A stretch of DNA of 64,000 nt from an uncultured Gallionella sp. (GCA_964385275.1 CAYLOK010000009.1:1368-65367), one strand, 5' to 3'. Numbered from the stretch's first letter, positions 32,624 through 64,000 are shown. The notes: generated by a model from the sequence alone, not told the origin. Numbers and translations are program-made.

Positions 32624-34651
32624 ATGAATCCATTACTCGACTTCACCGGTCTGCCGCGTTTTGCGGAGATCCAACCCGAGCATGTCGCACCCGCGATTGA
32701 AAAATTGCTGGCGGATTGCCGCGAACTGGGCGCGTATCTGCTGGCCGACGACAAAGCGCCCACCTGGCAGAATTTCGTCGCGCCGATGGAAGATGCGCAT
32801 GAGCGATTGTCGCGCGCCTGGGGACCGGTCGGTCATCTGAATGCGGTGATGAATTCGCCCGAATTGCGCGAGGCCTACAACAGTACCTTGCCGGTGATTA
32901 CCCAGTATTACGCCGAGCTGGGGCAAAATCTTGAATTATTCAATAAATTCAAACAGATATGGAATTCACCTGAATTTACGACGCTGAGTGTGGCGCGCAA
33001 GAAGATCATCGAGAACGAGTTGCGCGATTTCCGGTTGGGCGGCGCGGAATTGCCGGATGACAAGAAGGCACGTTATCTGGAAATTCAGGAACGCCAGTCC
33101 GAACTGACCTCGCGCTTCTCCGACAACCTGCTGGATGCGACCAACGCTTACACGCTACTTATTGAAAATAAAGAAGAATTGAGCGGGCTGCCGGAAGACG
33201 CGTTGCAGACGGCGCAGGAAGCTGCCGCAGCAGTGGAAAAAACAGGTTGGCTGTTCACCCTCAAAGCGCCGTCCTATCTGCCGGTGATGCAGTTTGCCGA
33301 CAACCGCGACTTGCGCGCAAAGATGTATCGCGCCTATGCCACGCGCGCTTCCGAATTCGGCAAACCGGAGTGGGACAACTCAAAACTGATGGATGAGATC
33401 GTGCAACTGCGCGGTGAAGAAGCGCGTCTGCTGGGCTTCGCCAATTATGGCGAATTGTCGCTGGCCGCCAAGATGGCCGAGACGCCGCAGCAAGTGGTTG
33501 ATTTTATGCGAGAGCTTGCGCAACGCGCGCGCCCGTTTGCCGAAAAGGATCTGGCCGAATTGCGCGAATTTGCCAGCGCCCGTCTGGGATTGAATGAATT
33601 ACATTCCTGGGATGTCACTTATGCCAGCGAGAAGCTGCGCGAACAGCGTTATGCCTTTTCCGAACAGGAAGTGAAGGAATATTTCCCCGAAGACGCGGTA
33701 TTGAAAGGCTTGTTCAGTCTGGTCGAAACGCTGTACGACCTGCACATCGTGGCGTCCACCGCACCGGTCTGGCATGAGAGTGTGCACTTCTTCGATATAC
33801 GCGATGCGCAAGGCCAGCTGATCGGCCAGTTCTATTTTGATCTGTATGCCAGAGCTAGCAAACGCGGCGGGGCGTGGATGGATGACGTCATCACGCGACG
33901 TCGCGTGGACGCGCTGATTCAAACGCCGGTCGCCTATATGAACTGCAATTTTGCAGCGCCGGTCGGCGGCAAGCCCGCCGTATTTACCCACGACGATGTT
34001 ATCACTTTGTTCCACGAATTCGGCCACGGCCTGCATCATTTGCTGACTGAAGTGGAAGATCTGGGCGTGTCCGGCATCAACGGCGTGGAATGGGACGCAG
34101 TAGAACTTCCCAGCCAGTTTATGGAAAACTATTGCTGGGAATGGGATGTGCTGCGCGGCATGACGCGCCATGTCACCACCGGCGAACCACTGCCCCGCAC
34201 CCTGTTCGACAAGATGCTGGCGGCGAAAAATTTCCAGAGCGGCCTGCAAAGCCTGCGCCAGATCGAATTCGCGCTGTTCGATATGCTGATGCACAGCGAT
34301 TTCGAGGCGGGCGGCGGCAAGACAATATTGCAACTGTTGGACGAGGTGCGCGCCGAAGTCGCGGTGCTGATTCCGCCCGAATTCAACCGCTTCCCGCACA
34401 GCTTCTCGCATATCTTCGCGGGCGGCTACGGCGCAGGCTATTACAGCTATAAATGGGCGGAAGTGTTGTCAGCCGATGCCTACAGTCTGTTCGAGGAACA
34501 AGGCGTGCTCAACCCCGCCGTCGGCGCACGTTTCCGTGCTGAAGTGCTGGCCGTGGGCGGTTCGCGCGGAGCGATGCAGTCGTTCGCCGCCTTCCGTGGC
34601 CGCGAACCCAGCATAGACGCGCTGTTGCGGCATAACGGTTTGTCCAATTAA
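32624..34651 (+). CDS. prlC: Oligopeptidase A (M3 family)
   Basis: [35 protein letters not shown] and [10 protein letters not shown]. Confidence 0.96.
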
Positions 34652-36429
34652 TGAATCAAACTTCGCTTTCTGCTTTTATTTGGTCAGTCGCTGATTTACT
34701 GCGCGGCGACTATAAACAGTCTGAATACGGCAAGGTCATTTTGCCGTTCACCGTACTCCGCCGTCTGGATTGCGTGCTGGAAGCGACTAAACCTGCCGTC
34801 TTGATCGAGCTGGACGCAAAACAGCAAGCCGGACTGAATCCTGAACCGTTCCTGTTGCGCAAAGCTGGGCAGAGTTTCTACAACACGTCCGCACTCGACA
34901 TGAAGAAATTGATGGGCGATCAGGATCACATCCGCGAAAACCTGTACAGCTACGTTCAGGCATTTTCCCCCGCCGTGCGTGACATTTTCGAGCGGTTCGA
35001 TTTTCACACACTGGTTGATCGCCTGAGCAAATCCGGCCTGCTGTATCAAGTCACCGAGAAGTTCGCGCAGATCGACTTGCACCCCGATGTGGTCAGCAAC
35101 AGCCAGATGGGGTTGGTATTCGAGGAGTTGATCCGCAAGTTTGCTGAAATCTCAAACGAAACTGCAGGGGAGCATTTCACCCCGCGTGAAGTCATCCGCC
35201 TGATGGTTAATCTGCTGTTCATCGAAGATGATGATGTGCTGTCCAAGCCGGGCGTGGTGCGTACCATTTACGACCCGACTGCTGGCACGGGCGGAATGCT
35301 GTCTATCGCAGGCGAGTATCTGGAAGAGCATAACCCAGAAGCGCGACTCACCATGTTCGGGCAGGAGTTGAACGACGAGTCCTACGCCATCTGCAAAGCC
35401 GATATGCTCATCAAAGGTCAGGATGTCGCCAACATCATGCCGGGTAACACGCTGTCGGATGACGGACACCTGCACAAGAAGTTCGACTACATGCTATCCA
35501 ATCCGCCGTTTGGCGTGGAGTGGAAGAAGGTCGAGAAGGACATCCGCAAAGAACACGAGCAGCAAGGTTTTAACGGTCGTTTCGGCCCCGGCCTGCCGCG
35601 TGTGTCGGATGGTTCGCTGCTGTTCCTGCTGCACCTCGTCAACAAGATGCGCCCCGCCGCCGAGGGTGGCAGTCGCTTCGGTATCGTGCTAAACGGATCA
35701 CCTCTGTTCACCGGCGGCGCAGGTAGTGGCGAGAGCGAGATACGCCGCTACGTGCTGGAAAACGATCTGGTCGAAGCCATCATCGGCCTGCCAACGGACA
35801 TGTTCTACAACACGGGCATCAGCACTTACGTCTGGATACTCTCCAACCGCAAGCCGGAAACGCGCAAAGGCTACGTGCAACTGATCGACGCTTCCGGCAT
35901 GTGGCAGAAGATGCGCAAGAGCCTCGGCAGCAAGCGTAAGGAAATGTCTGATGCGCACATCGCTGAAGTCACACGCTTGTTTGGCGAGTTTGTAGGTCGG
36001 GATTCATCCCGACAAGATGAAAGTCGGGATAAATCCCGACCTACAACCGCTTCGATCAGCCGTATCTTCAAGAATGCAGACTTTGGCTATCGCACCATCA
36101 CCGTCGAGCGACCATTGCGTGATGAGCAAGGCAAGATTGTGCTGGGCGAAAAGGGCAAGCTGAAAGGCAAGCCGCAATCGGATAGTAGTCTGCGCGATAC
36201 TGAAAACGTGCCGTTGAGTGAGGAGGTGGAAAGTTACTTCAAGCGCGAAGTGCTACCTCATGCACCGGATGCGTGGATTGACCAAGACAAAACCAAAGTC
36301 GGTTACGAAATCCCGTTCAATCGCCACTTCTATGTATTTCAGCCACCGCGCCCGCTTGCGGCGATTGATGCGGAGTTGAAGCAATGCACAGATCGGATTC
36401 TGAGCATGATAGCGGGGCTGTCAGCATGA
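34651..36429 (+). CDS. hsdM: Type I R-M methyltransferase subunit (locus 1)
   Basis: [31 protein letters not shown] and NPPF. Its ATG overlaps the prlC stop (TAATG). Confidence 0.96.
35990..36046. repeat. GTAG-type REP doublet (REPIN-like) inside hsdM
   Basis: TTGTAGGTCGGGATTCATCCCGAC-N9-GTCGGGATAAATCCCGACCTACAA: 24-bp inverted arms with 1 mismatch, each arm itself a hairpin. Confidence 0.88.
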
Positions 36430-36517
36430 TTAGTGCAACTCATACGCACCCCTCTGCAATAAGTCACACGCTGTGTGACCAATCCCACTTTGCTCCATCT
36501 CGTTGGAGGTTGTCGGC

Positions 36518-36883
36518 ATGAACGATCAAAGCCAATTCCTGCTTTACACTGCGCCGAATGGGGCTGTGAAAGTTGATGTCTATTTCCAGAATGAAACGGC
36601 TTGGCTGACACAGAAAGCACTGGCTGAATTGTTTGGCGTTCAAGTGCCAGCGATCAACAAGCATTTGAAGAACATCTTCGAGTCGGACGAATTGCAGGAG
36701 TCGGCAGTTATTTCCATTTTGGAAACAACTGCGGCTGACGGAAAAAGCAACACTACTACATCTCTCCGAATTTCATCGTTCCGCCCCCTAGGATTCCTGA
36801 AGAATTTCATACGTTTTCTTATCACACCAGAAAACGGAAATTCATATAATATTATTTATAATCATGCGGTTACTATCACATGA
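36518..36883 (+). pseudogene. Truncated RhuM-family (virulence RhuM-like) gene fragment
   Basis: FLLYTAPNG...ETAWLTQKALAELFGVQVPAINKHLKNIFESDEL...ILETTAADGK matches the RhuM N-terminus. Similarity is lost before the expected YNLDAIISVGYRV motif. Confidence 0.7.
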
Positions 36884-38337
36884 ATAAACACTGGATTGCA
36901 CAGGCTGTCGCATCATTACATGCTAGTCGTGAGCCTATTCCCCATGAGATCAATGAGCTCGACTGGAAAGCACGGCTTTCAGATAATAGAGAACGGATGG
37001 CTGAACATCTTATCGCGTTTGCCAACAACCCAAACGGCGGCAATCTCGTATTTGGTGTAGCGGAACCAGATGCAGCGTTGGTGGGTGTCTCGAAAGAGCA
37101 AATGGTCGAAATAGTTGGGCAACTTACCAATTTAGGCCGTGACGCAATTGAACCGCCCTTGGTACTAGATCACGCGATGGTCGAAGTCGATCAAGTAGCA
37201 CTACTTTTCGTTCATATACCTGAATGCCGAAATAAGCCCGTACATCGACGCGGCAAATCCATCGAAGAAGCATGGGTGCGCTCAAGCGGCACAACTCGCA
37301 AAGCATCTCGTCACGATATAGGTACGTTGATGCTGCACAGCCACGCCCCCCGTTGGGAGGAACTACGTGCTTCATCTCTGTTATCTGCGAGCGAAGTGGT
37401 CGAGCGGCTAGACTTGGAAACAATTGCCAGACTGCTACAGCATCCTCTGCCGACCGAAGAGGATGAACTTATCCGCTGGCTGATAGATGAAAGTATCGTC
37501 ACCCCTGATGGGAGCGGCTATTACATCACTAATTTCGGTGCGATTGCCGCAGCAAAGCAACTCGAACAATTTGCAACCCTTGCCCGTAAGCGTATTCGCG
37601 TGATTCGTTACCGTGGCACAAACAAAGTAGAGACCATAGATGAACTTATGGGGCAAAAAGGGTATGCCGCAGGATTTGAAGGATTGATTGGCTATCTTAA
37701 ACGCAGCCTGCCTCACTCTGAAGTCATTCAGCAATCCTTACGGCGTGAAGTAACCGTATATCCTGAGATCGCGTTGCGTGAGCTGATTGCAAACTCACTT
37801 ATCCATCAGGATTTCAGTATTACCGGAGCGGGACCAACGGTAGAGATTTTCGACGACCGAATCACATTCACCAATCCCGGCACTTTATTGCCCGGGAAAC
37901 GATTGGATAGGCTGATTGGCACGACACCGGAATCACGGAATGAGGTGCTTGCATCAGCATTCCGTCGTTATCGTATCTGCGAAGAGCGCGGCACCGGCTT
38001 CCAGAAAGTAGTCGCCAATATCGAGTTGTTTGGCCTTCCGCCAGTATTATTCTCTCCACAAGAGAACTCTTTTCAGGTCACGCTGTTCGCCCCGCGCAAG
38101 TTCGCGGAGATGTCTCAGGCAGAACGTATTGAAGCCTGCTATCAGCATTCGATTTTGCAATACCTGTCCAGTCAAACTCTGACCAACACCACCTTGCGCG
38201 AAAGATTTAAAGTAAACGAGAAGCAACGAAATCAGATTACCAATTTGATTGCAGATGCAGTCACGGCTGGGCGGATTAAACGCAAAGATGCCAGCAGCGG
38301 TAACAAATTTGCCGAATACTGGCCTTACTGGGCATGA
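36880..38337 (+). CDS. AlbA_2/Schlafen-like N-terminal domain plus HATPase-like (RecG C-terminal-like) and wHTH protein
   Basis: ELDWK, IAFANNPNGGNLVFGV, ALRELIANSLIHQDF, EIFDDRITFTNPG, RNEVLASAF and CEERGTG. Confidence 0.8.
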   Translation: MNKHWIAQAVASLHASREPIPHEINELDWKARLSDNRERMAEHLIAFANNPNGGNLVFGVAEPDAALVGVSKEQMVEIVGQLTNLGRDAIEPPLVLDHAMVEVDQVALLFVHIPECRNKPVHRRGKSIEEAWVRSSGTTRKASRHDIGTLMLHSHAPRWEELRASSLLSASEVVERLDLETIARLLQHPLPTEEDELIRWLIDESIVTPDGSGYYITNFGAIAAAKQLEQFATLARKRIRVIRYRGTNKVETIDELMGQKGYAAGFEGLIGYLKRSLPHSEVIQQSLRREVTVYPEIALRELIANSLIHQDFSITGAGPTVEIFDDRITFTNPGTLLPGKRLDRLIGTTPESRNEVLASAFRRYRICEERGTGFQKVVANIELFGLPPVLFSPQENSFQVTLFAPRKFAEMSQAERIEACYQHSILQYLSSQTLTNTTLRERFKVNEKQRNQITNLIADAVTAGRIKRKDASSGNKFAEYWPYWA

Positions 38338-38350
38338 AGGAGTTAATCAA

Positions 38351-39661
38351 ATGAGCTTGCCGCGATATTCAGAATACAAACCGAGCGGTGTGGAATGGCT
38401 GGGCGAAGTGCCGGTGCATTGGGATGTGAAGTCAATTAAGTGGTTATCTCCTGTTCAACGAGGCGCATCACCTCGTCCCATTGACGACCCCAAGTATTTC
38501 GATGATGAGGGCGAATATGCTTGGGTGCGGATTGCGGATGTTTCTGCATCAGACGGAGAGTTACGCGATACAACTCAACGGCTCTCAGACTTGGGAAGTT
38601 CGCTCAGCGTTAAGATAAATCCCGGTGAGTTGTTTATCAGCATAGCCGGAACTGTCGGCAAGCCTTGCATCTCAACGATAAAGGCGTGTATCCACGATGG
38701 CTTCGTTTACTTTCCAACTTTGCAAATTCCACCGATTTTTCTTTATCGGATTTTTGAGGCGGGTGTTTGTTATGGTGGGCTGGGGAAATTCGGCACGCAA
38801 CTCAATCTGAACACGGACACAATTGGTTCAATACGTATTGCACTACCACCCACGGATGAACTAAACGCAATTTTAGCCTTCCTCGACCTCGAAACGGGAA
38901 AGATCGACGCGTTAATTGCCGAACAGCGACGGCTGGTGGAGTTGCTGGCGGAAAAGCGGCAGGCGGTGATTTCGCACGCCGTCACCAAGGGCCTGAACCC
39001 CAATGCACCTATGAAAGACTCAGGCATCGAATGGCTGGGTGAAGTGCCAGAGCATTGGGAGGTTTCGAGAATCAAACGTGTTGCATCAATTAGGTATGGA
39101 ATCGGTGAACCGCCGAAATATCACGCTGAAGGTATGCCACTTATTAGAGCTACCAACGTCCATGCGGGCAATCTGTTCGATGAAGGGATGGTATTTGTCG
39201 ATCCAACCGAAATTCCTGCGCAACGAATTGTTTGGTTGTCAGCAGGTGACATCATCGTGGTTCGAAGTGGCGCATATACGGGAGATTCGGCGATCATTCC
39301 CGATGGATATGGTAAGTGCATCGCTGGTTTCGACATGGTTATGCGGTGTCATTCGGCAAATCCGGTATTCATTCAATTCGTACTGCTGAGCAAATATCTG
39401 AAGGAGGGTCAGATTGACCTTGAAAAGATGCGAGCAGCGCAGCCTCATTTGAATGCTGAAGAACTAGGTTCATGCATTGTGGTGCTACCCAACGCTCAAG
39501 AGCAAGACGAAATCACGGTATTTCTAAAGTCGAGAAATACTGAATTCGACACCCTCATCGTTGAAGCCAACCGCGCCATCGAACTACTGCAAGAACGCCG
39601 CAGTGCGCTGATTTCCGCTGCCGTGACTGGCAAAATTGATGTGCGTGCAACAAGGATTTAA
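38351..39661 (+). CDS. hsdS: Type I R-M specificity subunit (locus 1)
   Basis: YKPSGVEWLGEVPVHW, the repeat MKDSGIEWLGEVPEHW, two TRDs and ERRSALISAAVTGKIDVR. ATG at 38351. Confidence 0.95.
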   Translation: MSLPRYSEYKPSGVEWLGEVPVHWDVKSIKWLSPVQRGASPRPIDDPKYFDDEGEYAWVRIADVSASDGELRDTTQRLSDLGSSLSVKINPGELFISIAGTVGKPCISTIKACIHDGFVYFPTLQIPPIFLYRIFEAGVCYGGLGKFGTQLNLNTDTIGSIRIALPPTDELNAILAFLDLETGKIDALIAEQRRLVELLAEKRQAVISHAVTKGLNPNAPMKDSGIEWLGEVPEHWEVSRIKRVASIRYGIGEPPKYHAEGMPLIRATNVHAGNLFDEGMVFVDPTEIPAQRIVWLSAGDIIVVRSGAYTGDSAIIPDGYGKCIAGFDMVMRCHSANPVFIQFVLLSKYLKEGQIDLEKMRAAQPHLNAEELGSCIVVLPNAQEQDEITVFLKSRNTEFDTLIVEANRAIELLQERRSALISAAVTGKIDVRATRI

Positions 39662-39732
39662 GCGCACGCTTTACAGTGCGATTTATAACATGATTTAATA
39701 CACGCTCTACCACGTTTAACCAGGAGTGCATC

Positions 39733-39990
39733 ATGTCTCACATCAGTGCCAATGATTTGAAAACCAAAGGGGTGGCCGCCATCGAAGCCATGCTGGCACA
39801 GCATTCTGAGGCGATTGTGTCGGTGCGCGGCAAAGATCGCTTTGTGGTCATGGAAATCGCCCAATACAATTATTTGCGCGAATGCGAGCTGGAAGCCGCC
39901 TTAGCTGAAACACGCGCTGATTTGGCAGCCGGGCGCTTCGTTCAAGAATCGGCAGATGCACATTTGGCAAGGATGGAAAAGCTGGCATGA
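39733..39990 (+). CDS. Phd/YefM-like antitoxin
   Basis: ISANDLKTKG, IVSVRGKDRFVVM and an acidic C-terminus; overlaps the next gene (ATGA). Confidence 0.78.
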   Translation: MSHISANDLKTKGVAAIEAMLAQHSEAIVSVRGKDRFVVMEIAQYNYLRECELEAALAETRADLAAGRFVQESADAHLARMEKLA

Positions 39991-40262
39991 GTTATGTGCT
40001 GGTTTTTACGGAATCCTATGATCGCCGGGCTTTGCGCTGGTTAAAGAAGCATCCCGAACTGCGATCACAATACCTCAAGACCTTGCAACTGCTGGAAGCC
40101 AATCCGTTTCACCCTTCGTTGCGTCTGCACGCCTTGAGCGGAAAGTTGCAAGGCGTTCATTCAGTTTCGATTAATTTGTCGTATCGCATTACGCTGGAAT
40201 TGCTGATTCAGGACGGGCAAATCATTCCCGTCAACGTGGGCGATCATGATGCGGTTTATTAA
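39987..40262 (+). CDS. RelE/ParE-superfamily toxin
   Basis: LLEANPFHPSLRLHALSG, HSVSINLSYRI and VGDHDAVY. Confidence 0.8.
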   Translation: MSYVLVFTESYDRRALRWLKKHPELRSQYLKTLQLLEANPFHPSLRLHALSGKLQGVHSVSINLSYRITLELLIQDGQIIPVNVGDHDAVY

Positions 40263-40274
40263 CGGATAACGAGC

Positions 40275-43200
40275 ATGAGCCTGCACAAAGAAATCGAATT
40301 CGAGAATGACATCTGCGCGCATCTTGCGGCACATGGCTGGCTGTATGCGGACGGCGATTTCACAACTTATGACCGCGCCCGTGCCATGTTCCCTGCTGAT
40401 ATTGCGGCTTGGGTGCAAACCACACAGCCCAAGGCGTGGGAGTCATTGAACAAGAGTCACGGCGCAGCAGCAGAAGCCGTTTTGCTGGATCGGTTACGCC
40501 GCCAACTGGATGACAGAGGCACGCTGGATGTATTGCGGCATGGCATCGAATTGCTGGGCTTACGTCAGCCGTTGCAGCTTGCGCAGTTCAAACCCGCGCT
40601 GGCGATGAACCCGGAGTTACAACAGAAGTATGCTGCTAACCGTTTACGCGTGGTACGTCAGGTGCGCTACTCGCTGCACAACGAGAATTCGATTGATCTG
40701 GTGTTATTCCTGAACGGCCTGCCGATTGCGACAGTAGAGCTGAAATCTAACTTCACGCAGTCGGTGGACGATGCAGTAGATCAGTATCGTTTCGACCGTC
40801 ACCCCAAACCTAAAAGCCAATCCGCCGCCGAACCACTGCTGGATTTCCCGCGTGGCGCACTGGTGCATTTTGCGGTCAGCAACAGCTCAGTGATGATGAC
40901 CACGCGCCTGCTGGGCGCAACCACGACGTTCCTACCGTTCAATCTAGGCGACCACGGCGCAGCGGGCAATCCGGTCAATCCTAACGGACATCGCACCGCC
41001 TATCTGTGGGAACAGGTGTGGGCGCGGGAAAGTTGGCTGGAGATCATTGGGCGTTATATCGTCGCCAAGCGCGACAGCAAGAAGCAAATCAAGGCGGTGA
41101 TTTTTCCGCGCTATCACCAACTGGATGCCACCCGAAAACTGCTGGCGGCGGTGTTAGCTCAACATTCTCCCTCACCCCTAGCCTCTCTCCCGCCAGCGGG
41201 CGAAGGGAATAAGTATCTGATCCAACACTCTGCCGGTTCGGGCAAGACTAACTCTATCGCGTGGACGGCGCACTTCCTTGCCGACTTGCACGACGCGCAG
41301 CACAAGAAGCTGTTCGACTCGGTGCTGGTGGTGTCGGATCGCACTGTACTGGATACGCAGTTGCAGGAAGCCATCTTCGACTTCGAGCGTACCGCTGGCG
41401 TAGTCGCCACCATCAAGGGTGAAAGCCAGAGCAAAAGCGGCGAACTCGCGCAAGCTCTGTCAGGCGGTAAGAAGATCGTGGTGTGTACCATTCAGACTTT
41501 CCCGTTTGCGTTACAGGCCGTGCAGGAGCTGGCTGCGACACAGGGAAAACGCTTCGCGGTGATTGCCGATGAAGCACACAGCTCACAGACGGGCGCAGCC
41601 GCATCCAAGCTCAAGCAGTTGTTGAGTGCAGAGGAAATACAGGAGCTGGCGGACGGCGGAGAGGTCGGCACGGAAGACTTACTGGCCGCAAACATGGCGG
41701 CACGGGCGAATGACGCGGGGATCACTTATGTCGCCTTCACTGCCACGCCCAAATCCAAAACGCTGGAGCTGTTCGGTCGTCGCCCCAATCTGGCACTTCC
41801 TGCCAGTGATAGCAATTTGCCTGCGCCGTTCCACGTTTATTCCATGCGTCAGGCCATTGAGGAGGGTTTCATCCTTGATGTGCTGAAGAACTACACGCCG
41901 TACAAGCTGGCTTTCAAACTCGCCAACGAAGGACGCGAGTGGGATGAAAAGGAAGTGGAACGCAGCACGGCGATGAAAGGCATCATGCGCTGGGTGCGTC
42001 TGCACCCCTACAACATCATCCAGAAGGTGCAAGTGGTAGTCGAGCACTTCCGTGAGAACGTACAGCCGTTACTCGAAGGTAAAGCCAAGGCAATGGTAGT
42101 GGTCGGTAGCCGCCTTGAAGCCGTGCGCTGGCAGATTGCCATCGACAAATACATCAAGTCGCAGGGCTACAAAATTGGCACGCTGGTGGCGTTCTCCGGC
42201 GAGGTGAACGATCAGGAGTCTCATCCAGACCCACTGTCCGAAACCAGCAAAACGCTTAACGCCAATCTGAACGGGAACGACATACGTGTAGCCTTCGCCA
42301 CGGATGAATATCAGATACTGCTGGTCGCCAACAAATTCCAGACTGGTTTCGATCAGCCTTTGCTCTGCGGCATGTACGTGGACAAGCGGCTGGCGGGTAT
42401 TCAGGCGGTGCAAACCTTGTCGCGCCTGAACCGCGCCTATCCGGGCAAGGATACGACGTATGTACTCGACTTCGTGAACGATCCTGACGAGGTACTGAGT
42501 GCGTTCAAGACTTACTTTGAAACGGCAGAGCTGGACGGCGTGACCGATCCGAATCTGGTGTATGACTTGCGCGCCAAACTGGACTCGGAAGGCCATTACG
42601 ACGACAACGAGGTGGATCGCGTGGTGAACGTGGAGATGAATCCCAACGCGTCGCAGGCTGAACTCTCCGCTGCTATCGAGCCAGTGGCGGATCGACTGTT
42701 GAAACGCTACAGGGTCGCGCAGGAAGCATTTAAGGCCGCTGTAGCCAACAAAGATGCCAACGCTGAACAAACCGCAAAGGACGAAATGAACACGCTGGTG
42801 TTGTTCAAACATAATCTCGGCGCGTTCCAGCGGGTGTATGCCTTCCTGTCGCAGATATTCGACTACGGCAACACCGCCATTGAGAAACGCGCCATCTTCT
42901 TCAAACGTCTGCTGCCGCTGCTGGAGTTCGGACGGGAGCGTGAAGGCGTTGATCTGTCCAAGGTGACGTTGACCCATCACAAGCTGAAGGATCAGGGTAA
43001 ACGCAACCTGGCACTGGTGAACGGTGAATATCCCAAGCTGGCTCCCTTGACCGAACCCGGTAGCGGCGAGGTGCGTGAGCAGGAGAAGATTTACCTCGCG
43101 CTGATTATCGCCAAGGTGAACGACCTGTTTGATGGTGAACTAACCGATGACGACAAGCTGATTTACGTGAATCATGTGTTGAAAGGCAAGCTGCTTGAAT

Positions 43201-48192: not shown

Positions 48193-49889
<1,697 letters not shown>

Positions 49890-53626: not shown

Positions 53627-54685
53627 GTGTATGCAAAATACGCACCGCTGGTCATCACTGCGGGTGAACCGGCGGGTATAGGCCCGGAATTATGCATCCA
53701 GCTTGCCGCGAGCGGGATCGTCGTAATTGCCGATAAGCATCTGCTGCAACAGCGCGCGCAACAGTTGGGCATCAACCTGGAAGTAAGAGACTGGGATGCC
53801 GCAGGGGCATTCCCCGCACAACTAAGGGGCCGGGCCCCAAGTTATTGCGTGAAAGTGGAAAGTGAGAAGGGGGAAGGGTATGCGCATCGCGCCCCCCCGT
53901 CCCTTGATGTCATTCATGTCCCCCTTGCCGTACCTGCTGTTGCGGGTGTGCTGAATGTCGCCAATAGCGATTACGTGCTGGCGACCTTGCGCCGTGCGGT
54001 ACAGGGCTGCCAGTCGGGCGAATTTTCCGGCATGGTGACGGCCCCGGTACACAAAGGCATCATCAACGACGCCGGAATTCCGTTTACCGGACACACCGAA
54101 TTTTTAGCCGAACTGACCCAAACTCCGCAGGTGGTGATGATGCTGGCGGGCGGCGGGATGCGTGTGGCGCTGGCTACCACGCATCTGGCCTTGCGCGATG
54201 TGCCGGATGCGATTACCGCTCCGCTGCTGGAAAAGGTGTTGCGCATTATTCATCGCGACTTGCAGCGCCGCTTCGGCATCGCGCAGCCGCGTATTCTGGT
54301 GGCGGGGCTAAACCCGCACGCGGGCGAAGGCGGACATATGGGGCGCGAGGAAATCGAGGTAATGATTCCCGTGCTCGACAAGTTGCGCGCCGAGGGCATC
54401 AATGTCAGCGCGCCGCTGCCCGCCGACACCTTGTTTACGCCGGACAAGCTGGCGCAATGCGATTGCATACTTTCCATGTATCACGATCAGGGGCTGCCGG
54501 TGTTGAAGCACGCCAGTTTTGGCGGGGGGGTGAATATCACGCTGGGTCTGCCGATTATCCGCACTTCGGTGGATCACGGTACGGCGCTGGATTTGGCCGG
54601 AACCGGCAAGGCCGACGGCGGCAGCCTGCTGGAAGCGATCAAGGTCGCGGCTGAAATGGCACAATTTGAACGCTTGGCGTCATAA
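53627..54685 (+). CDS. pdxA: 4-hydroxythreonine-4-phosphate dehydrogenase
   Basis: [40 protein letters not shown] and RTSVDHGTA. Start uncertain. Confidence 0.95.
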
Positions 54686-54700
54686 CTTCACAATCAATCC

Positions 54701-55621: not shown

Positions 55622-55674
55622 GGCAAGGTACGCTGCACCCTGCACCGAACGAAAACCGCTGAATTATTTAATAA

Positions 55675-55695: not shown

Positions 55696-55704
55696 CAAAT
55701 ACGA

Positions 55705-56973: not shown

Positions 56974-56993
56974 AAAAGCCTTTATTGAATAGA

Positions 56994-58469: not shown

Positions 58470-58538
58470 GGGTTTTCCTCCAGAAGGCCGCCATTCGGAA
58501 ATAGGTTTGGTATCAATCGCCCGCGAGAAATTAAGTGC

Positions 58539-58671
58539 ATCATTCCCGAAGCTCTCACCCCCGTCATTCCCGAAGCTCTCACCCCCGTCATTCCCGAAGC
58601 GGTTCTGATCGGGAATCCAGCCTTTAACCGGCAAAAACAATAGATCCCCGATAAAGACATTCGGGGATGAC
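58539..58671 (+). repeat. CGTC-type palindromic doublet preceded by two 24-bp half-units (element C)
   Basis: RTCATTCCCGAAGCTCTCACCCCC x2, then GTCATTCCCGA-N12-TCGGGAATCCAG, a spacer, and GATCCCCGA-N10-TCGGGGATGAC. Confidence 0.9.
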
Positions 58672-58701
58672 GGGCTGGCTGCGAAAGATCGGCTGGGCTA
58701 T

Positions 58702-58992
58702 TCAAACCAATTCTTCCCACAAATCTTTCCAAGTCGGATTCATCTTCTCGATCAAATCTATTTTCCATTGCCTGTTCCATTTTTTAAGTTGCTTCTCTCG
58801 TTCAATCGCTGTCAGCATCTGTTCATGCAACTCGTAATACACAAGCGAGTGAACTGTATATTTTTCCGTGAACCCTTCAACCAGATCATTCTTATGCTGC
58901 CAGATACGCTGAATCAGATTGCTGGTTACACCGATATACAAAGTGCCGTTGTATCCGCTCGCCAGAATATAAACCGCAGGCTGTTTCTCCAT
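58702..58992 (-). CDS. Stand-alone GIY-YIG nuclease (YhbQ/UPF0213-like)
   Basis: AVYILAS...TLYIGVTSNLIQRIWQHK, LVYYE and AIEREKQLKKWNRQWK. Confidence 0.92.
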   Translation of the reverse strand: MEKQPAVYILASGYNGTLYIGVTSNLIQRIWQHKNDLVEGFTEKYTVHSLVYYELHEQMLTAIEREKQLKKWNRQWKIDLIEKMNPTWKDLWEELV

Positions 58993-59012
58993 TGCACAAC
59001 CTCCATCAATCT

Positions 59013-59225
59013 GTCATTCCAGAAGTGACCCCACCCCGCCATTCCCGAAGCTATCACACCCCGTCATTCCCGAAGCTATCACACCCCGTCATTCCCGAAG
59101 CGTTCCCACCCCGTCATTCCCGAGACGGCTCCAACCCCGTCATTCCCGAGACGCTTCTTATCGGGAATCCAGCTTCTAACCCACCAAAACCATGGATCCC
59201 CGATAAAAACATTCGGGGATGACGG
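59013..59225 (+). repeat. CGTC-type palindromic doublet preceded by five 25-26 bp half-units (element B)
   Basis: Units start at 59013, 59038, 59063, 59088 and 59113 (GYCATTCCMGAR...CCCC). A full arm spans 59139-59172 and a second arm TGGATCCCCGA-N10-TCGGGGATGAC follows. Confidence 0.92.
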
Positions 59226-59249
59226 CTTAGACTTTGCTCAAGGTGTCAT

Positions 59250-60086
59250 TTATTTCTTCGCCAAACTTTTCTTCGCCGGAGGCAAATAGTTTTCAGCCGA
59301 AACCAGCTTCTTGCCCGTCTTGCCTTCCAGCTCCAGCCGCGCTTTTTTGGCGATACCGCCGCCGGTCTTCGCCGCAGCCTCATTCTCATTCATGCCCGTG
59401 GCATCCATGCTCTCGGCGATCTGGCGCGTGGAAAGCTCTGCCAGCGCGGTAAAAATCAATTCGGCTTCGCTCATGTGATCGCGCAGGTTTTGCGACTTCA
59501 GGCCTTTCATTTCCTTGTGCGCCTTCACATCCACTTCCGCCCATTCCTGATGAATGATGTTGGTCAGGATCGCGTATTCCTCGCCTTCCTTGATGTCATG
59601 CTCTTTCCAGTAATCGGTCAGCTTGTTGCGCGTCTCCTGCCCCGTCATGCGCTGCTGTATCCACTTCTCGCTGCGCCCGTGCTTCTGCCAGGTCTCGCGG
59701 GCTCGATCCAGAGAACGGGCGGGGTCAGCCATCTCCTGCATCCGCTCATAGCCCACCTTCGCCAGCCACAACTTAATCGGCTCCGCCTTCGGGCTGGGCA
59801 CGGACTGCACCAACCGCAGCAAAGCCTCGGCAGTGGCGACATCGGTGAGGTAATTCTTGCCATCTGCGGCAGGCAATTTCAGTCGGTGACAATTTGTCAC
59901 CGACTGACTGCCTTCCTTGCTCAGTCGCTCTTTCAGCTTGTTCCAATATTTGCGCGCTGTTTGATAATCAGGCTGCTGGGTCAACACCTGCACAATATCC
60001 ACCACCGAAAACCACCAGGTTTCCGTGGCCTCGTCATACACGCGACGGATTTTATGCTCTTCAAAAATGGCTGGTTGAGGTTGCAT
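59250..60086 (-). CDS. BRO-N domain DNA-binding protein (antirepressor-like)
   Basis: KIRRVYDE...WWFSVVDIV, RKYWNKLKERL, LRLVQSVPSPKAEPIKLWLA and NLRDHMSEAELIFTALAE. Confidence 0.85.
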   Translation of the reverse strand: MQPQPAIFEEHKIRRVYDEATETWWFSVVDIVQVLTQQPDYQTARKYWNKLKERLSKEGSQSVTNCHRLKLPAADGKNYLTDVATAEALLRLVQSVPSPKAEPIKLWLAKVGYERMQEMADPARSLDRARETWQKHGRSEKWIQQRMTGQETRNKLTDYWKEHDIKEGEEYAILTNIIHQEWAEVDVKAHKEMKGLKSQNLRDHMSEAELIFTALAELSTRQIAESMDATGMNENEAAAKTGGGIAKKARLELEGKTGKKLVSAENYLPPAKKSLAKK

Positions 60087-60103
60087 GGTCAGGACTCCTT
60101 CCC

Positions 60104-60217
60104 GTCATTCCCGCGCCCTCTTTCGTCACCCCCGCGAAGGCGGGGGTCCATGCGATTCAAAAACTGGATTCCCGCCGGAGCCTGCCCTCGAATGAATTTG
60201 TCGGGGGCGGGAATGAC
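60104..60217 (+). repeat. CGTC-type palindromic doublet with one half-unit (element A)
   Basis: GTCATTCCCGCGCCCTCTTTC, then GTCACCCCCGCGAAGGCGGGGGTCCA-TGCGATTCAAAAAC-TGGATTCCCGCC-[insert]-GGCGGGAATGAC. Confidence 0.88.
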
Positions 60218-60239
60218 GTTATAGGCGTGCAAAGTATGG

Positions 60240-61886
60240 CTAACCACGCTTGCTCCTTTTGCCAACCGCCGAGCTTTCCCCGGCAGTTGCCCGCTCCGCC
60301 TTGATGCGCGCCAGCAGTGCCGATGCGGGTTCGTCGTGCGGGTCTTGCGGCACCAGTTGGCCGGAGAAGGCTTTTTTCAGGATGGACTGGCGCAGGGCTT
60401 CGGCTTGTTGCAACGAGGTGGTGATGGTTAGTTCGAGTTGGTCAACTTCGGACAACCTTGCTGCAAGGCTTTCAATAACCACTTCAGATTCAGCACATGA
60501 ACAAATGGGCACGACTATTGATCGAATTCTTTCTTGCCCAATGTTGCGCATGGACTCTTGATTGCCTGTCGATAGCTGCATGATTTGTTTGCGCCCAAAG
60601 CGACTGCCAAGATACTGAAGGAAATATTCCTGAGAGAAGCCATCAAATCTGATGCGAAGTGTTTTATCGCTCAGCATGATTTTCTTGGTTACCTTCCTTG
60701 CAATGACGCAGGCTCCAACGAGATCAATGGTGTTTGCTCGGCTTAGAATGAAATCACCGTTCCTAATTAAATAGGCTTCATTTTCTTTCGATGCGTCAGT
60801 GCAAGTCTTGCTTTCCGATTCATCATATTCGCCCCACGTCACCGCACTTACTTTCGCGACTCCGATTTCATTTGCACGTGGTTCGCGTTCGTCACACTTA
60901 AAACTTTTCCCCGCATCAATCGACTCAATGAAGTCACCCAATTTGCACCATCCCCACCCCTGCGGCAGTTTTGGCAATTCGGCCCGCTCTTCGGCGGTGA
61001 GTGGCGGCAGGGGTTTCGGGGCTTTGGGTTTCCCAGCACGCTGGACAAGGCTGCCTTGTTTGACGTTGGCTTGCCAGTCGGCGAGTTGTTGCTGGTAGCG
61101 TTGCGCGCGCTCTTGCTGGATGCGCTTGAGCAAGGCCTGCCCGCCGGCAGGCTGGGCATCGGCGATTTCCAAACCCATATCGTCATTCCCGCGAAGGCGG
61201 GAATCCAGTTTTTCATTCGCATGGACTCCCGCCTTCGCGGGAGTGACGGAATTTTTAGTGCGGCGTTCCTCGCGCCACTGCGCAGTGAGCTTGCCCTCGA
61301 AGGCGTGTTTCAGCAAGGCCTGGCGATACACCTTGAGCTGCGCGCGGGCGGTCTTCAGGTTCTCAATGCCCTTGTCCAACTCGGAAAACAACTCCTCGAT
61401 TTTGACGACGATGCGGTGTTGTTCGGGAAGCGGCGGCAATGGAAAAGAAAACGAAGCAATATCGTTAGGCCGCACAGCCGGATAGAGTGCACCTTGTACG
61501 CATAGGCACATCTTCTCTATGAACTCCCGCGTATGCACCAGATAAAATAGAAACTTTGGCTCAACCCTTTTCGAGCGCAAAACATGAAATCCAGTCGAAC
61601 CAATCGCACCATGAAACTCAGATGTTGCCATTGCTATTGCATTCAGGTTTGGACGGGTCATTGAGATGAGAACATCTCCGCTTTGAAGCACTTGCTTAGC
61701 TCGGCTTGGTGCGGCTGTTGATTCTAGAACCTTAGCATCTGAGATACGTTTTTGCTCACGGTCTATGCTGCTTATATCAACATAGATAAATTCACTACTG
61801 ACTGGCCCGCTCCGGTCCACAGCTTCATCAGCCACTTCGCCAAGAATAGCCATAGACCAGCCATCTGGCAGCTCCACTTCACTCAT
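60240..61886 (-). CDS. hsdS: Type I R-M specificity subunit (locus 2) with long central linker
   Basis: ELPDGW, LPPLPEQHRIVVKIEELFSELD, HAFEGKLT, LPKLPQGW and ILKKAFSGQLVPQDP. The ATG overlaps the vapC stop. Confidence 0.94.
   Translation of the reverse strand: MSEVELPDGWSMAILGEVADEAVDRSGPVSSEFIYVDISSIDREQKRISDAKVLESTAAPSRAKQVLQSGDVLISMTRPNLNAIAMATSEFHGAIGSTGFHVLRSKRVEPKFLFYLVHTREFIEKMCLCVQGALYPAVRPNDIASFSFPLPPLPEQHRIVVKIEELFSELDKGIENLKTARAQLKVYRQALLKHAFEGKLTAQWREERRTKNSVTPAKAGVHANEKLDSRLRGNDDMGLEIADAQPAGGQALLKRIQQERAQRYQQQLADWQANVKQGSLVQRAGKPKAPKPLPPLTAEERAELPKLPQGWGWCKLGDFIESIDAGKSFKCDEREPRANEIGVAKVSAVTWGEYDESESKTCTDASKENEAYLIRNGDFILSRANTIDLVGACVIARKVTKKIMLSDKTLRIRFDGFSQEYFLQYLGSRFGRKQIMQLSTGNQESMRNIGQERIRSIVVPICSCAESEVVIESLAARLSEVDQLELTITTSLQQAEALRQSILKKAFSGQLVPQDPHDEPASALLARIKAERATAGESSAVGKRSKRG
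61182..61247. repeat. CGTC/dRS3-like palindromic doublet in frame in hsdS
   Basis: GTCATTCCCGCGAAGGCGGGAATCCA-N14-TGGACTCCCGCCTTCGCGGGAGTGAC: 26-bp arms with 2 mismatches, 66 nt in total, translated VTPAKAGVHANEKLDSRLRGND. Confidence 0.92.
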
Positions 61887-62272
61887 CACCACACGACCGG
61901 AACTGAATAAGCTGCGAACGCATGATCGACAGAGACGATGGTCATGCCTTCCACAACGGCCTGGGCAATGATCAGGCGGTCAAATGGATCTCTATGATGC
62001 TGTGGTAATTGTTCCAGATAGCTTATGTGCGATAACTCGATCGGCAATAATTTTATGTTATTTTCAAGCGTATTTTTATTCACCAACTCTTCAATTGGCA
62101 TGGCTAATGATAATTTATCGAGCTGGCTTTTGATTTGCATTTCCCAAGGCGAAGCCATACTCAAATAAAATTCATGCGCGCCCGAGCTGCATAAGTCCTG
62201 CACTGTTTTGGAAAGTCGTTCAGGGTCATCGTTGAGCCAGAGAAAAACGTGGGTGTCCAGCAACAACTTCAT
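61886..62272 (-). CDS. vapC: PIN-domain (VapC-like) toxin
   Basis: MKLLLDTHVFLW, SMASPWEMQIK and HRDPFDRLIIAQA. Confidence 0.9.
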   Translation of the reverse strand: MKLLLDTHVFLWLNDDPERLSKTVQDLCSSGAHEFYLSMASPWEMQIKSQLDKLSLAMPIEELVNKNTLENNIKLLPIELSHISYLEQLPQHHRDPFDRLIIAQAVVEGMTIVSVDHAFAAYSVPVVW

Positions 62273-62493
62273 AACTTGCCTTCCAACCAAAAACTTTCTG
62301 GCAATGGCTCATTAAAGTCATCGCTCATTTTTATAAGCCCTTGAAATAATCCCAATTTTAAGGGCTTAGATGGCTGTGCGATTTCTTCATACATGACGAT
62401 TACTCGCGCTTTATGTGCTTGTATCGTTTTGGGTAATTGCAAATGAATTTGCTGGTTGAAATCAATTTCCACTGGGAATTCGAGGGCGTGCAT
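62269..62493 (-). CDS. Putative antitoxin partner of the PIN toxin
   Basis: A 74-aa gene overlapping the PIN gene. The C-terminus KLGLFQGLIKMSDDFNEPL is typical of DUF2281-like partners. Confidence 0.7.
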   Translation of the reverse strand: MHALEFPVEIDFNQQIHLQLPKTIQAHKARVIVMYEEIAQPSKPLKLGLFQGLIKMSDDFNEPLPESFWLEGKL

Positions 62494-62552
62494 GGCGGTT
62501 TTCCTTTCAAACTAGGTTCATCTGGATTGTAGCAAGCTATCCGTGCCGGCAG

Positions 62553-62601
62553 ATAGGAAGCCGCATTTTATAGCGGCAAGTCGGGTTAAAACCCGCCCTA
62601 C
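62553..62601. repeat. GTAG-type REP with degenerate partner hairpin
   Basis: 62580-62601 reads GTAGGGCGGGTTTTAACCCGAC on the minus strand. The adjacent hairpin GCCGC-ATTTTATA-GCGGC is at 62560-62577. Confidence 0.65.
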
Positions 62602-62607
62602 ATATAT

Positions 62608-64000
62608 TCATGCAACCAGTACCTCGTTGAGTTCATCCAGCAACGTATCCATCTTCGCGCCGAACAACTGATACATTTTGCCCAGCCCGCCCTGTCCGAA
62701 TGGTGGATCTTCAAGCTCATCACGTTCAATGTGAAATGAAATAGCAACGTGGTCGCGCACCATGCGCAGCCAGTCCATTTGTTCCTCGTTGAATTTTTCT
62801 GTGCCGCCGGAGTGGTGTTTCATAATCCAGTTTCTAAAGTTGCGGCGCACGGTGGCATCAAAGTCGGTGAGCGTTTCATCCATGCCGCACACGCGGCGGA
62901 TGAGCGCCACGAGTGCAGTCAACTCACTGACTGGATTCCCGCCTGCGCGGGAATGACGAGCTGTTTGGGCTTCTAAGCGTTGATAAGCTTGCCACACATA
63001 CAAGGGGGCGAGCTTGGGTTTGTCGGTTTTGAGTTTATCCAGCACCTGGCGGATCAGGTCGTAGCTGAGTTCGCGCCTGCGATACGGCTGGCTGAAGAAG
63101 ATGGTGAGGGCGGCGATGTTGTCTTGGTTCGCCTTTAAGTATTCGGCGAATTCGTCGGCGATGGCTTGCGCGTGGTCGGCCATGTTCGCTTCCCAGCCCG
63201 CGCCCAACACGGTGTCGAGTGTGTCGTGGTCTATGGTTTGTTCTTTGTCGCGGCGGATGGTGTCGAGCAGTTCCACCAGTTCGCCATTCAGCACGCTGGC
63301 GACTTCTTGTACCAATTGCTGCTGCGCCAGTTCGCGTTTTGCGTCGCCGGGGTCTGTGCCGATTGGCTGGCCTGCGAGTTGCAGCGCGCGGGCTTCGATG
63401 TTGTCGGCATCAATCGCGCCGAATAGCTGGCCGACGAGTTGGTTGAGTTCCAACCCGCCTGCGGCTTGCCGAATCATGCGCTGGTCGTCGGCATCCAGTT
63501 GTTTGTTGAGCCGCGCCAGGCGTCCGGCCAGAGATGACACGGTGTCTTCGTCCGTCGCGCCCATCATCACCTGCATCGCCAAATCTTTAAGCGGCACGGT
63601 GGGTTTGGTGATGAGCGGCTGGCTGGCGGTCTTGAGTGATTTGGTGACGCCGATGGCATCGACGATGACATAGTGGGTCTTGGCGCTGACGGCGGAGGGG
63701 GTGACTTTGCGCAGGTCGTCGATGTCCAGCGTGCGCGTGCCGCGCCCTTTCATCTGCTCGAAGTAGTTGCGGCTTTTCACGTCGCGCATGAACAACAGGC
63801 ATTCCAGCGGCTTCACGTCCGTGCCCGTGGCGACCATGTCCACGGTGACGGCGATGCGCGGGTAATACTCGTTGCGGAATTGCTGCAATACCGACTTGGG
63901 GTCTTCGTCGGTTTTGTAGGTGAGCTTTTTGCAGAACGCATTGCGCTCGTCGAATTCCTCGCGCACGGTCTGGATGATGTCGTCGGCGTGGCTGTCGGTC
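62608..64000 (-). CDS. hsdR: Type I R-M restriction subunit (locus 2), 5' part outside the window
   Basis: RIAVTVDMVATGTDVKPLE, SRNYFEQMKGRGTR and an EcoEI-like C-terminus (QGGLGKMYQLFG...LDELNEVLVA). The frame is open to the window edge. Confidence 0.92.
   Translation of the reverse strand, partial: TDSHADDIIQTVREEFDERNAFCKKLTYKTDEDPKSVLQQFRNEYYPRIAVTVDMVATGTDVKPLECLLFMRDVKSRNYFEQMKGRGTRTLDIDDLRKVTPSAVSAKTHYVIVDAIGVTKSLKTASQPLITKPTVPLKDLAMQVMMGATDEDTVSSLAGRLARLNKQLDADDQRMIRQAAGGLELNQLVGQLFGAIDADNIEARALQLAGQPIGTDPGDAKRELAQQQLVQEVASVLNGELVELLDTIRRDKEQTIDHDTLDTVLGAGWEANMADHAQAIADEFAEYLKANQDNIAALTIFFSQPYRRRELSYDLIRQVLDKLKTDKPKLAPLYVWQAYQRLEAQTARHSRAGGNPVSELTALVALIRRVCGMDETLTDFDATVRRNFRNWIMKHHSGGTEKFNEEQMDWLRMVRDHVAISFHIERDELEDPPFGQGGLGKMYQLFGAKMDTLLDELNEVLVA
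62931..62957 (-). repeat. Single CGTC/dRS3-like palindrome in frame in hsdR
   Basis: Minus strand reads GTCATTCCCGCGCAGGCGGGAATCCAG (ATTCCC-N8-GGGAAT), translated RHSRAGGNP. Confidence 0.9.

Follow-up and report, generated by a model that had tools for sequence, protein, structure and literature searches.

We examined the genes of two type I restriction-modification (R-M) systems, hsd1 and hsd2, in a stretch of 64,000 nucleotides (nt) of DNA from an uncultured Gallionella sp. (GCA_964385275.1, CAYLOK010000009.1:1368-65367), referred to here as the window, and the short repeats of the REP type (repetitive extragenic palindromes) which several of these genes carry in frame. The source lineage is a Gallionella-like betaproteobacterium, and its nearest public relative is a contig of a Gallionella metagenome-assembled genome (MAG) in which hsd1 and the lptD-surA cluster occur in the same order with 91-95% protein identity. 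The window has six type I hsd genes, all supported by Pfam, and their products have the components of such systems according to Pfam and PDB homologues, namely HsdM_N and N6_Mtase domains with an NPPF motif, Methylase_S domains, and an HsdR nuclease with a superfamily 2 (SF2) motor. The genes of hsd2 lie on the minus strand in the order R-S-M. Gene coordinates in the window were checked by hand, and the intervals of orthologues in the compared loci, which are labelled with L-numbers (L004 is the nearest relative of the window at hsd1), were defined by tblastn. The hsd genes, their inserts and the adjacent intergenic repeats are as follows.

34651-36429, plus strand: hsdM1, methyltransferase subunit, 592 amino acids (aa), intact; Pfam HsdM_N and N6_Mtase, NPPF motif
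35992-36046, plus strand: insert in hsdM1, a GTAG REP doublet of two inverted 22-nt units
38351-39661, plus strand: hsdS1, specificity subunit, insert-free in the window; Pfam Methylase_S
40275-43424, plus strand: hsdR1, restriction/translocase subunit, 1049 aa, intact; Pfam HSDR_N, SWI2_SNF2/ResIII, T1R_D3-like
~41163-41212, plus strand: insert in hsdR1, a degenerate 'CCCTCACCCC...GCGGGCGAAGGG' (GAGGG-type) REP remnant adding 12 codons
56994-58469, minus strand: hsdM2, methyltransferase subunit, 491 aa, insert-free; Pfam
60103-60218: CGTC-REP pair in the intergenic DNA downstream of hsdS2, with 92% identity over 53 nt when compared with the hsdS2 insert
60240-61892, minus strand: hsdS2, specificity subunit, 550 aa, intact; Pfam Methylase_S and alignment to solved HsdS structures
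61181-61248: insert in hsdS2, a CGTC REP doublet whose in-frame minus-strand translation is SVTPAKAGVHANEKLDSRLRGNDD
62580-62601: intergenic GTAG-type REP singleton directly downstream of hsdR2
62608->64000, minus strand: hsdR2, C-terminal part only, continuing past the window end; Pfam EcoEI_R_C
62931-62958: insert in hsdR2, a CGTC singleton, read on the minus strand as RHSRAGGNP

An earlier note on this DNA had claimed that four of the six hsd genes carry in-frame palindromic inserts from three repeat families, and most of this was borne out. The reading frame is open through each of the inserts in hsdM1, hsdR1, hsdS2 and hsdR2, orthologue alignments showed all four to be missing from most orthologues, and the three families represented (GTAG, CGTC and GAGGG-type) are each dispersed in other sequences. 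Three of the inserts proved to be palindromic when their DNA folding energy was compared with that of dinucleotide shuffles. The hsdM1 doublet, which starts with GTAGGTCGGGATTCATCCCGAC at 35992 and whose inverted partner ends in CCTAC at 36046, thus carries the GTAG tag and folds as an inverted dimer at -24.7 kcal/mol (z -8.8). The hsdS2 doublet reaches -31.3 kcal/mol (z -9.05), while the hsdR2 singleton, which adds 6 aa relative to most orthologues, has a z of -3.8; in both, a CGTC tag stands beside a GC-rich palindrome (CGTCATTCCCGCGAAGGCGGGAAT at 61181 and ATTCCCGCCTGCGCGGGAATGACG at 62935-62958). The palindrome claim failed for hsdR1, whose insert has a 5-bp stem only and no significant palindrome (z -0.32). 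A GAGGG-type ('CCCTCACCCC') REP consists of a CCCTCTCCC-loop-GGGAGAGGG palindrome, usually followed by a GGGG(A/T)GAGGG tail, and the hsdR1 copy does not have this structure. It shares a 26-nt stretch, 96% identical, with a REP that another Gallionella genome (L322) carries as an insert in murU, and judging from this relationship to intact copies it is a decayed derivative of a GAGGG-type REP.

Public genomes contain at least 120 stretches that match the GTAG unit, many from Gallionellaceae, and in the source organism the unit was seen at 35992, at 62580, perhaps at 1322, and in loose-end contigs of its metagenome. The CGTC unit is likewise a multi-copy dispersed family, with eight locations in the window and matches in a further 23 of the compared sequences, and repeat cross-matches were found in 23-31 compared sources. 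In public groundwater metagenomes the organism reaches ~220x depth, always with insert-bearing alleles (data kept as contigs), and no insert-free alleles were seen in the public runs compared with hsd1, which as contigs are uninformative on polymorphism.

A generic search for hairpins with a stem of at least 9 and one mismatch gave mostly chance hairpins and overlooked the REP stems, which have 7-8 bp, so we used family motifs and orthologue gaps. The family-motif scan of the whole 64-kb window found no further intragenic REP copy, in agreement with the earlier note, in which no such palindromes had been seen inside its ~35 housekeeping genes. Inserts are therefore present in four of six hsd genes and in 0 of ~45 other genes (hypergeometric p ~6e-5, a hand calculation), which means that the clustering within the window is not chance. 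The sole REP outside the hsd regions is a GTAG-type hairpin, GTGGGCACACGGTGCCCACCCTAC, at 1322-1347, where it overlaps the predicted start of a housekeeping gene (155-1342, minus strand); it is probably intergenic, with the start of that gene mis-called.

We judged the location of the inserts within the proteins from alignments to orthologues and solved structures. In HsdM1, the alignment to solved HsdM catalytic (methyltransferase) domains ends at the residue immediately before the insert. The hsdR1 insert lies just before Walker A and, in the alignment to EcoR124I HsdR, falls in the loop that joins the Q-motif helix to Walker A; EcoR124I HsdR has a natural 12-residue loop at this position. 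The hsdS2 insert begins 12 aa past ...AFEGKL, where the first conserved helix ends and, in the alignment, the solved HsdS structures 3OKG/5YBB have their C-terminus, and it therefore leaves the recognition domains and the length of the coiled coil untouched. As it is outside both the helix and the target recognition domains (TRDs), no change of specificity is expected, and most likely the inserts would alter neither the specificity nor the activity of these enzymes. An exact look-up of the HsdS2 protein found no record.

The six hsd open reading frames (ORFs) are intact as far as the window reaches, with their catalytic motifs present. The ratio of nonsynonymous to synonymous substitution rates (dN/dS) against the nearest relatives is 0.058 for hsdM1, 0.058 for hsdR1, 0.026 for hsdM2, 0.12 for hsdR2 and 0.14 for the conserved part of hsdS2, while housekeeping neighbours have values of 0.06-0.18. 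Taken together, these data indicate that the hsd genes experience strong purifying selection and are not decaying. A public 'metatranscriptome' run yielded a 31-kb contig, which suggests DNA carry-over, and it therefore gives no information on expression.

Recurrent insertion in linkers of hsd and core genes

The linkers that are occupied in the window are also occupied in other species, often by other repeats. The hsdM1 segment between ...TRLFG and ISRIF... is 69 nt long in 50 of 83 homologous loci (80 genomes) and longer elsewhere. Apart from the window, a GTAG doublet occurs at the same junction in one Sulfuricellaceae MAG and at a different junction in two other genomes, while five genomes have a GAGGG-type hairpin in this loop and three have a second GAGGG variant. 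These states are scattered on the gene tree, with at least 11 changes among 79 sequences, and because the sister allele of the window (L004) is empty, the hsdM1 insertion in the window is recent. At the Walker A site of hsdR1, one genome has a similar insert and four others have an unrelated 57-nt palindrome at the identical place; four further sites of this gene are hit in other species, and hsdR1 of L004 carries three inserts not present in the window. We also observed an in-frame element of ~84 nt, encoding G(Q/L)ARSP.PTLPR.AGEGANESLR.., in hsdR1 of L004, L005, L007 and L011 (at aa ~540-560 and 846-865, with two copies in the nearest relative) and in amgK of L288, L293 and L322. By its sequence, this element, a GAGGG hairpin with conserved arms, is probably a larger MITE (a miniature transposable element with inverted repeats).

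The hsd2 system follows the same pattern. The hsdR2 insert replaces the usual DYKGAQP, and two loci (L100 and L140) have other CGTC copies at this place. The usual hsdS2 linker has 11 codons (AENQDKLETAD) and is expanded by CGTC units in several genomes, and a second HsdS2 linker is occupied by yet another repeat family in four genomes. The hsdS1 gene is insert-free in the window, but in its orthologues of L005, L007 and L079 the linker that follows the first conserved helix holds inserts of the CGTC, GTAG and GAGGG types; taken together, the linkers of HsdS1 and HsdS2 have thus been hit by CGTC, GTAG, GAGGG and a fourth family. The insert sites are therefore length-variable between orthologues and carry REP-like inserts in other species, with different families at the hsdM1 and hsdR1 sites. 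In hsdM2, no lineage-specific insertion was found among 81 aligned sequences. The hsdS linker of a Nitrosomonas locus (L100, ~7535-7583) contains a 122-nt CGTC insert that is out of frame and introduces stop codons, and this is a disruptive REP insertion that has so far escaped purging.

For comparison with core genes, we used 53 Gallionella-type loci around surA as a control and applied the same orthologue-alignment scan to hsd genes and their neighbours, scoring REP-likeness by motifs and stem length. The expectation that intragenic copies are rarer in core genes than in hsd genes did not hold, as the two were about equally frequent: there were 37 REP-like in-frame insertions in 186,545 aa of hsd proteins (0.198 per 1000 aa) and 40 in 184,477 aa encoded by 15 neighbouring non-hsd genes (0.217 per 1000 aa). 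With a stricter criterion (perfect stem of at least 8 bp), the counts were 13 and 16, respectively. Some core genes have rates as high as those of hsd genes or higher, with 1.2 for murU, 0.79 for a ubiH-like gene and 0.39 for amgK against 0.27 for hsdM1 and 0.24 for hsdR1.

One example is murU (48193-48879), which is insert-free in the window but in which the loop LPLLG(D/E)xPF is replaced by REP-like sequence in ~12 of 46 genomes, with at least 12 state changes on the tree of these 46 sequences. The genes amgK (48876-49889) and ubiH-like monooxygenase (44287-45474) are also insert-free in the window and carry REP-like sequence in frame at one fixed loop elsewhere, and pdxA, rsmA and xth likewise have REP-like inserts in other Gallionella genomes. 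No inserts were found among the Gallionella orthologues of lptD, pepP and several other genes, and the single insertion called in surA looks like a false positive. Codons ~55-95 of pdxA (window ~53800-53900) are a separate case, as nearly all Gallionella genomes have a hypervariable low-complexity insertion there. This consists of simple repeats such as GTGGGAAGTGGGGAG, is REP-like in a few genomes, and is non-palindromic in the window, as the earlier note had said.

Hosts outside this neighbourhood were found in a blind sample of 137 GTAG-REP sites from public genomes, ten of which are read in frame in a gene verified by Pfam: two at one and the same position of recG, and one each in rarA, tilS, trpC and the genes for an ABC ATPase, a hybrid histidine kinase, an allophanate hydrolase, an ADH-GFO fusion and a YfhO-like membrane protein. 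None of the ten hosts in this sample was an hsd gene. As core genes are hit about as often as hsd genes, in-frame REPs are no special property of defence genes, and the inserts in the type I hsd genes are a further case of a known habit of REPs in this clade rather than something specific to defence.

We believe that the most likely explanation is that REP elements land widely and that only in-frame copies in permissive linkers survive. Several REP families would be active, or recently active, in this clade and would insert broadly. Copies that break the reading frame or the protein fold would be lost by selection, a survivorship filter of which the L100 hsdS gene may be a visible casualty, while a copy whose length is a multiple of three and which lands in a tolerant linker would persist and later decay, as may have happened in hsdR1. 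The sites of the inserts are length-variable surface or inter-domain linkers, which would tolerate 6-27 extra residues, and the surviving inserts would be neutral. The excess in the window might have three sources, namely the long, multi-domain and linker-rich nature of Hsd proteins, the passage of hsd operons by horizontal transfer through genomes rich in REPs and, for the two CGTC copies, a local source in the form of a CGTC-flanked GIY-YIG gene in the hsd2 operon (discussed below).

Several points weigh against this explanation. The contrast within the window exceeds what the clade-wide rates predict. In addition, the taxon sets are unequal, with hsd orthologues from many orders and housekeeping orthologues that are all Gallionella-like. 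Because the hsd sets are rich in non-Gallionella taxa, we recomputed the hsd rate for Gallionellaceae only. With the window excluded, there are 19 insertions in 34,891 aa (0.545 per 1000 aa), an excess of ~2.5-fold over the neighbour genes (nominal p 0.0015, uncorrected for shared ancestry), although this rate falls within the range of single core genes. Some true preference for hsd genes may therefore exist, of not more than ~2.5-fold within Gallionellaceae. Event counts are also made without phylogeny correction and are inflated by single-gene neighbour-joining trees, scoring by motif and stem lets in some decayed or low-complexity loops for hsd and neighbour genes alike, the source genome is represented by the window and contigs like it, and the tolerance of the inserts by the proteins is itself something that we infer.

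The contrast within the window and the excess within Gallionellaceae are the points on which the main alternative is founded, namely that hsd genes are true preferential targets of REPs, either because of breaks or recombination at defence loci or because of GTAG or microhomology in linker codons. The three other inserts in hsdR1 of the nearest relative are in keeping with this idea, as are details of the target sequences: some empty hsdM1 alleles read TTTGTAGAAGCC, which contains GTAG, and the empty allele of L006 has GCAAGCGGGA in common with the core of the GAGGG-type REP. A GTAG or microhomology target is thus suggestive at hsdM1 and hsdR1, but the empty murU site has no such microhomology, and for this reason we did not adopt the idea. 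The equal overall rates, the equally hot or hotter murU, ubiH-like and amgK genes, the absence of insertions from all 81 hsdM2 sequences and the lack of an hsd host in the blind GTAG sample all argue against preferential targeting, and unrelated REP families that hit the same loops are unlikely to share a DNA target. We therefore consider it unlikely that hsd genes are preferred as such. What stands of this claim is the clustering within the window and the excess within Gallionellaceae; the overall rates do not bear it out.

It is much less probable still that the inserts are kept for a benefit, such as diversified specificity or subunit surfaces, altered TRD spacing, or evasion of phage anti-restriction proteins. 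They are indeed retained in genes under purifying selection, and the number of half-units in the REP region of the HsdS linker differs between operons. The position of the HsdS2 insert past the helix end, which leaves TRDs and coiled-coil length as they were, speaks against such a role, and the closest relatives have no inserts or different ones, the encoded peptide shows no sign of conservation, and the same elements decorate unrelated core enzymes. We therefore found no support for the suggestion that the inserts serve as a source of diversification, and the interpretation as a whole, that of special targeting or benefit, is weakly supported at best.

A role at the level of nucleic acid, in which the hairpins act as attenuators, mRNA stabilisers or recombination sites and their translation is incidental, seems to us just as improbable. 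Three of the inserts form very stable hairpins, and REPs are generally considered RNA or DNA elements (PMC3733652), but their presence varies among close relatives and the hsdR1 copy is no longer palindromic. That the hsd genes are inactive and decaying, with the inserts as unpurged damage, is the least credible of all, as it has the frame-breaking insert in the L100 orthologue in its favour and against it six ORFs intact as far as they can be seen, with catalytic motifs kept and dN/dS values of 0.026-0.14 that are equal to or below those of housekeeping neighbours.

A GIY-YIG gene bracketed by CGTC REPs, and other genes of the window

Every CGTC copy of the window lies at 58.5-63 kb, and the hsdS2 and hsdR2 inserts are within ~4 kb of a small gene encoding a GIY-YIG nuclease, which is placed between two composite CGTC repeats.

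58537-58672: CGTC-REP composite A, consisting of 2.5 half-units of 24 nt in tandem and then an inverted pair of CGTC hairpins
58702-58992, minus strand: GIY-YIG nuclease gene, 96 aa, between the two composites; Pfam PF01541
59013-59226: CGTC-REP composite B, consisting of 5.4 half-units of 25 nt in tandem and then an inverted pair of hairpins

In two loci (L102 and L105), the Bro-N gene and hsdM2 are direct neighbours, and the GIY-YIG gene and REPs that separate them in the window are absent; the block of GIY-YIG gene and REPs is therefore an insertion. Among 52 hsd2-type operons, CGTC REPs are present in the HsdS linker of nine of the ten that have the GIY-YIG gene and of none of the 42 that lack it, the latter having a linker of 11-12 codons (naive Fisher p 2.7e-9, where the operons probably represent one lineage). 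This distribution indicates that the CGTC copies in hsdS2 and hsdR2 go with the REP-flanked GIY-YIG gene in the same operon and not with hsd genes as such. Half-units are tandemly amplified beside complete CGTC hairpins in the window (58540-58600 and 59013-59149), and the same amplification is seen inside the hsdS linkers of L337, L339, L340 and L120, where it gives variable ...GGGND... peptide runs.

The association extends beyond these operons. All nine GIY-YIG homologue matches among the compared sequences have CGTC REPs on both sides, and in L029 (12413-12796) a 65%-identical gene lies between identical inverted 28-nt CGTC REPs. A metagenome scan for homologues gave 80 loci, 71 of them evaluable, with CGTC tags within 300 nt on both sides in 55, on one side in 13 and on neither in three. 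Tag density is 5.69 per kb within 300 nt of the gene and 0.148 per kb further off in the same loci, a 38-fold difference. The loci represent 33 distinct flank contexts, the largest of which (23 loci) is that of type I R-M operons, partly because of the choice of query. In the modal layout, a forward (CGTC-first) REP stands ~43 nt upstream and a reverse (GACG-last) one 30-55 nt downstream of the gene, and the similarity between elements ends exactly at the CGTC tags. The left and right REPs of one element have an identity of 0.85, compared with 0.73 between elements (0 of 5000 permutations were as high), and lineage-specific stems and loops also match between the two sides.

The same layout was found in Aeromonas caviae and in Novosphingobium pNL2, the latter with a different REP sequence, and in Neisseria gonorrhoeae the homologue is surrounded by a dense array of CGTC REPs, in which 3.3 kb contain 17 CGTC-tag motifs. 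GIY-YIG genes of 91-96 aa with matched inverted CGTC REPs thus occur in Beta-, Alpha- and Gammaproteobacteria (L029, L337-L345, L346-L425, L426-L428). The GIY-YIG element is therefore a nuclease gene of 91-96 aa bounded by matched inverted CGTC REPs with their tags outward, and like a 'REPtron', it consists of a nuclease gene between matched inverted REPs in many independent contexts. Free CGTC doublets also prefer the tags-outward orientation (90 against 22), and by their structure they look like internally deleted, MITE-like derivatives of an autonomous GIY-YIG element.

Some individual loci give further details. In L342 and L343 (~2880-3380), an 18-nt direct repeat, ATTCGAGGTTAAGACATG, brackets the REP doublet, the GIY-YIG gene and the following REP, and hsdM takes its ribosome-binding site and ATG from the second copy; this repeat looks like a target-site duplication. 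In L029 (12456-12911), the GIY-YIG ORF runs through the downstream REPs to give a tail of ...PLDSRLRGNDESG...PVIPAQAGIQ that overlaps the start codon of hsdS, and from our reading of the translation, the block truncates a DUF1016-like ORF. Searches of PDB and NCBIfam with the GIY-YIG protein returned only spurious WD40 matches and sub-threshold matches to intron endonucleases.

It is tempting to consider that the CGTC REPs, including those like dRS3 of Neisseria and RPE-4/6 of Rickettsia, are non-autonomous partners of this ~0.4-kb element, and that the copy in hsd2 seeded the inserts in hsdS2 and hsdR2. We regard this as a tentative proposal that is somewhat less likely to be right than wrong, in which the GIY-YIG nuclease would mobilise the repeats and would be the dedicated enzyme that a 2013 survey of these REPs failed to find. 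We found no report linking GIY-YIG genes to REP, RAYT or MITE sequences in the openly searchable literature, and a 2006 survey of the GIY-YIG superfamily treated the small stand-alone prokaryotic proteins as vertically inherited.

Both hsd operons carry further cargo, which in hsd2 consists of the following genes.

59250-60086, minus strand: Bro-N domain gene within the hsd2 operon; Pfam
61886-62290, minus strand: PIN-domain toxin between hsdR2 and hsdS2; Pfam PIN
62269-62493, minus strand: small ORF upstream of the PIN toxin gene; ORF call with no Pfam match

From its position beside the toxin gene, the small ORF may encode an antitoxin. The cargo of hsd1 (36503-38337 and 39733-40262) includes, between hsdM1 and hsdS1, a gene with Schlafen/AlbA_2 and HATPase_c_4 domains; between hsdS1 and hsdR1, a Phd/YefM-like antitoxin and its partner ORF of 91 aa; and a 126-aa ORF with no Pfam match. 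Lastly, the genes at the left end of the window (155-4732) are ~48 kb from surA, while their orthologues in 23-29 other Gallionella genomes (loci L284-L336) lie at most 10 kb from it, which suggests a rearrangement or large insertions in between.

Relation to known repeats and implications

REPs that spread with a dedicated enzyme are known from the REPIN-RAYT or 'REPtron' systems, in which REP doublets are mobilised by a REP-flanked Y1 transposase. The arrangement described here is similar in that an inverted REP doublet is the unit and a small nuclease gene lies between matched inverted REPs (CGTC REPs and GIY-YIG in this case), but the flanked gene encodes a GIY-YIG nuclease and not an HUH/Y1 enzyme. 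A second parallel is found in Neisseria, where dRS3 repeats and NIME arrays have been described as intergenic and as targets of phages or insertion sequences, and not as in-frame inserts of hsd genes. The hsdR2 insert ATTCCCGCCTGCGCGGGAAT fits the dRS3 pattern, ATTCCC-N8-GGGAAT, and the N. gonorrhoeae homologue within its dRS3/NIME-type CGTC array is another likeness. Length changes in the middle of HsdS are known from EcoR124I and EcoDXXI, in which the recognition sequence has its spacer altered by repeats located within the conserved helix. In the window, by contrast, the REP follows the helix and lies in a non-conserved linker.

The closest precedent is the work of Di Nocera, De Gregorio & Rocco 2013 (PMC3733652), who described GTAG and CGTC REPs in frame as singletons and inverted dimers that encode 7-30 aa. 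The hosts in that study were biased to DNA-handling proteins, with many in DNA-repair and replication genes, and its supplementary table includes an N-6 DNA methylase of Opitutus terrae with a GTAG dimer at aa 444-496. Both tagged superfamilies are shared with the window, as are the peptide signatures ...SRLRGND... and ...HSR..GNP.... The authors proposed neutral insertion into flexible linkers, argued for functional effects speculatively, presumed that disrupted genes are lost, and stated that CGTC REPs have no dedicated transposase. The main text makes no mention of restriction or Gallionella, and type I hsd genes and Gallionellaceae are outside its coverage. What differs here is that different families have repeatedly inserted into one and the same orthologous linker, and that hsd and core genes are compared quantitatively.

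Palindromic elements of Rickettsia (RPE) are the classic precedent, and they are not known to be linked with either defence operons or a nuclease gene that they flank. They are palindromic repeats that occur in frame in functional genes (Ogata et al. 2000, as cited in PMC3733652), and RPE-4 and RPE-6 have been classed as CGTC REPs (PMC3733652). They differ from the inserts in the window in that RPE-1 is longer and that the host is an obligate intracellular alphaproteobacterium.

With these results, the type I R-M genes of an iron-oxidising betaproteobacterium join the known list of proteins decorated by in-frame REPs. If the GIY-YIG nuclease is the partner of the CGTC REPs, the question of what spreads this very widespread superfamily, open since 2013, would become directly testable. 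Permissive linkers, rather than defence biology, would govern where REPs are read through, and the recurrently colonised loops of core and accessory proteins alike may serve as natural markers of sites that tolerate insertion.

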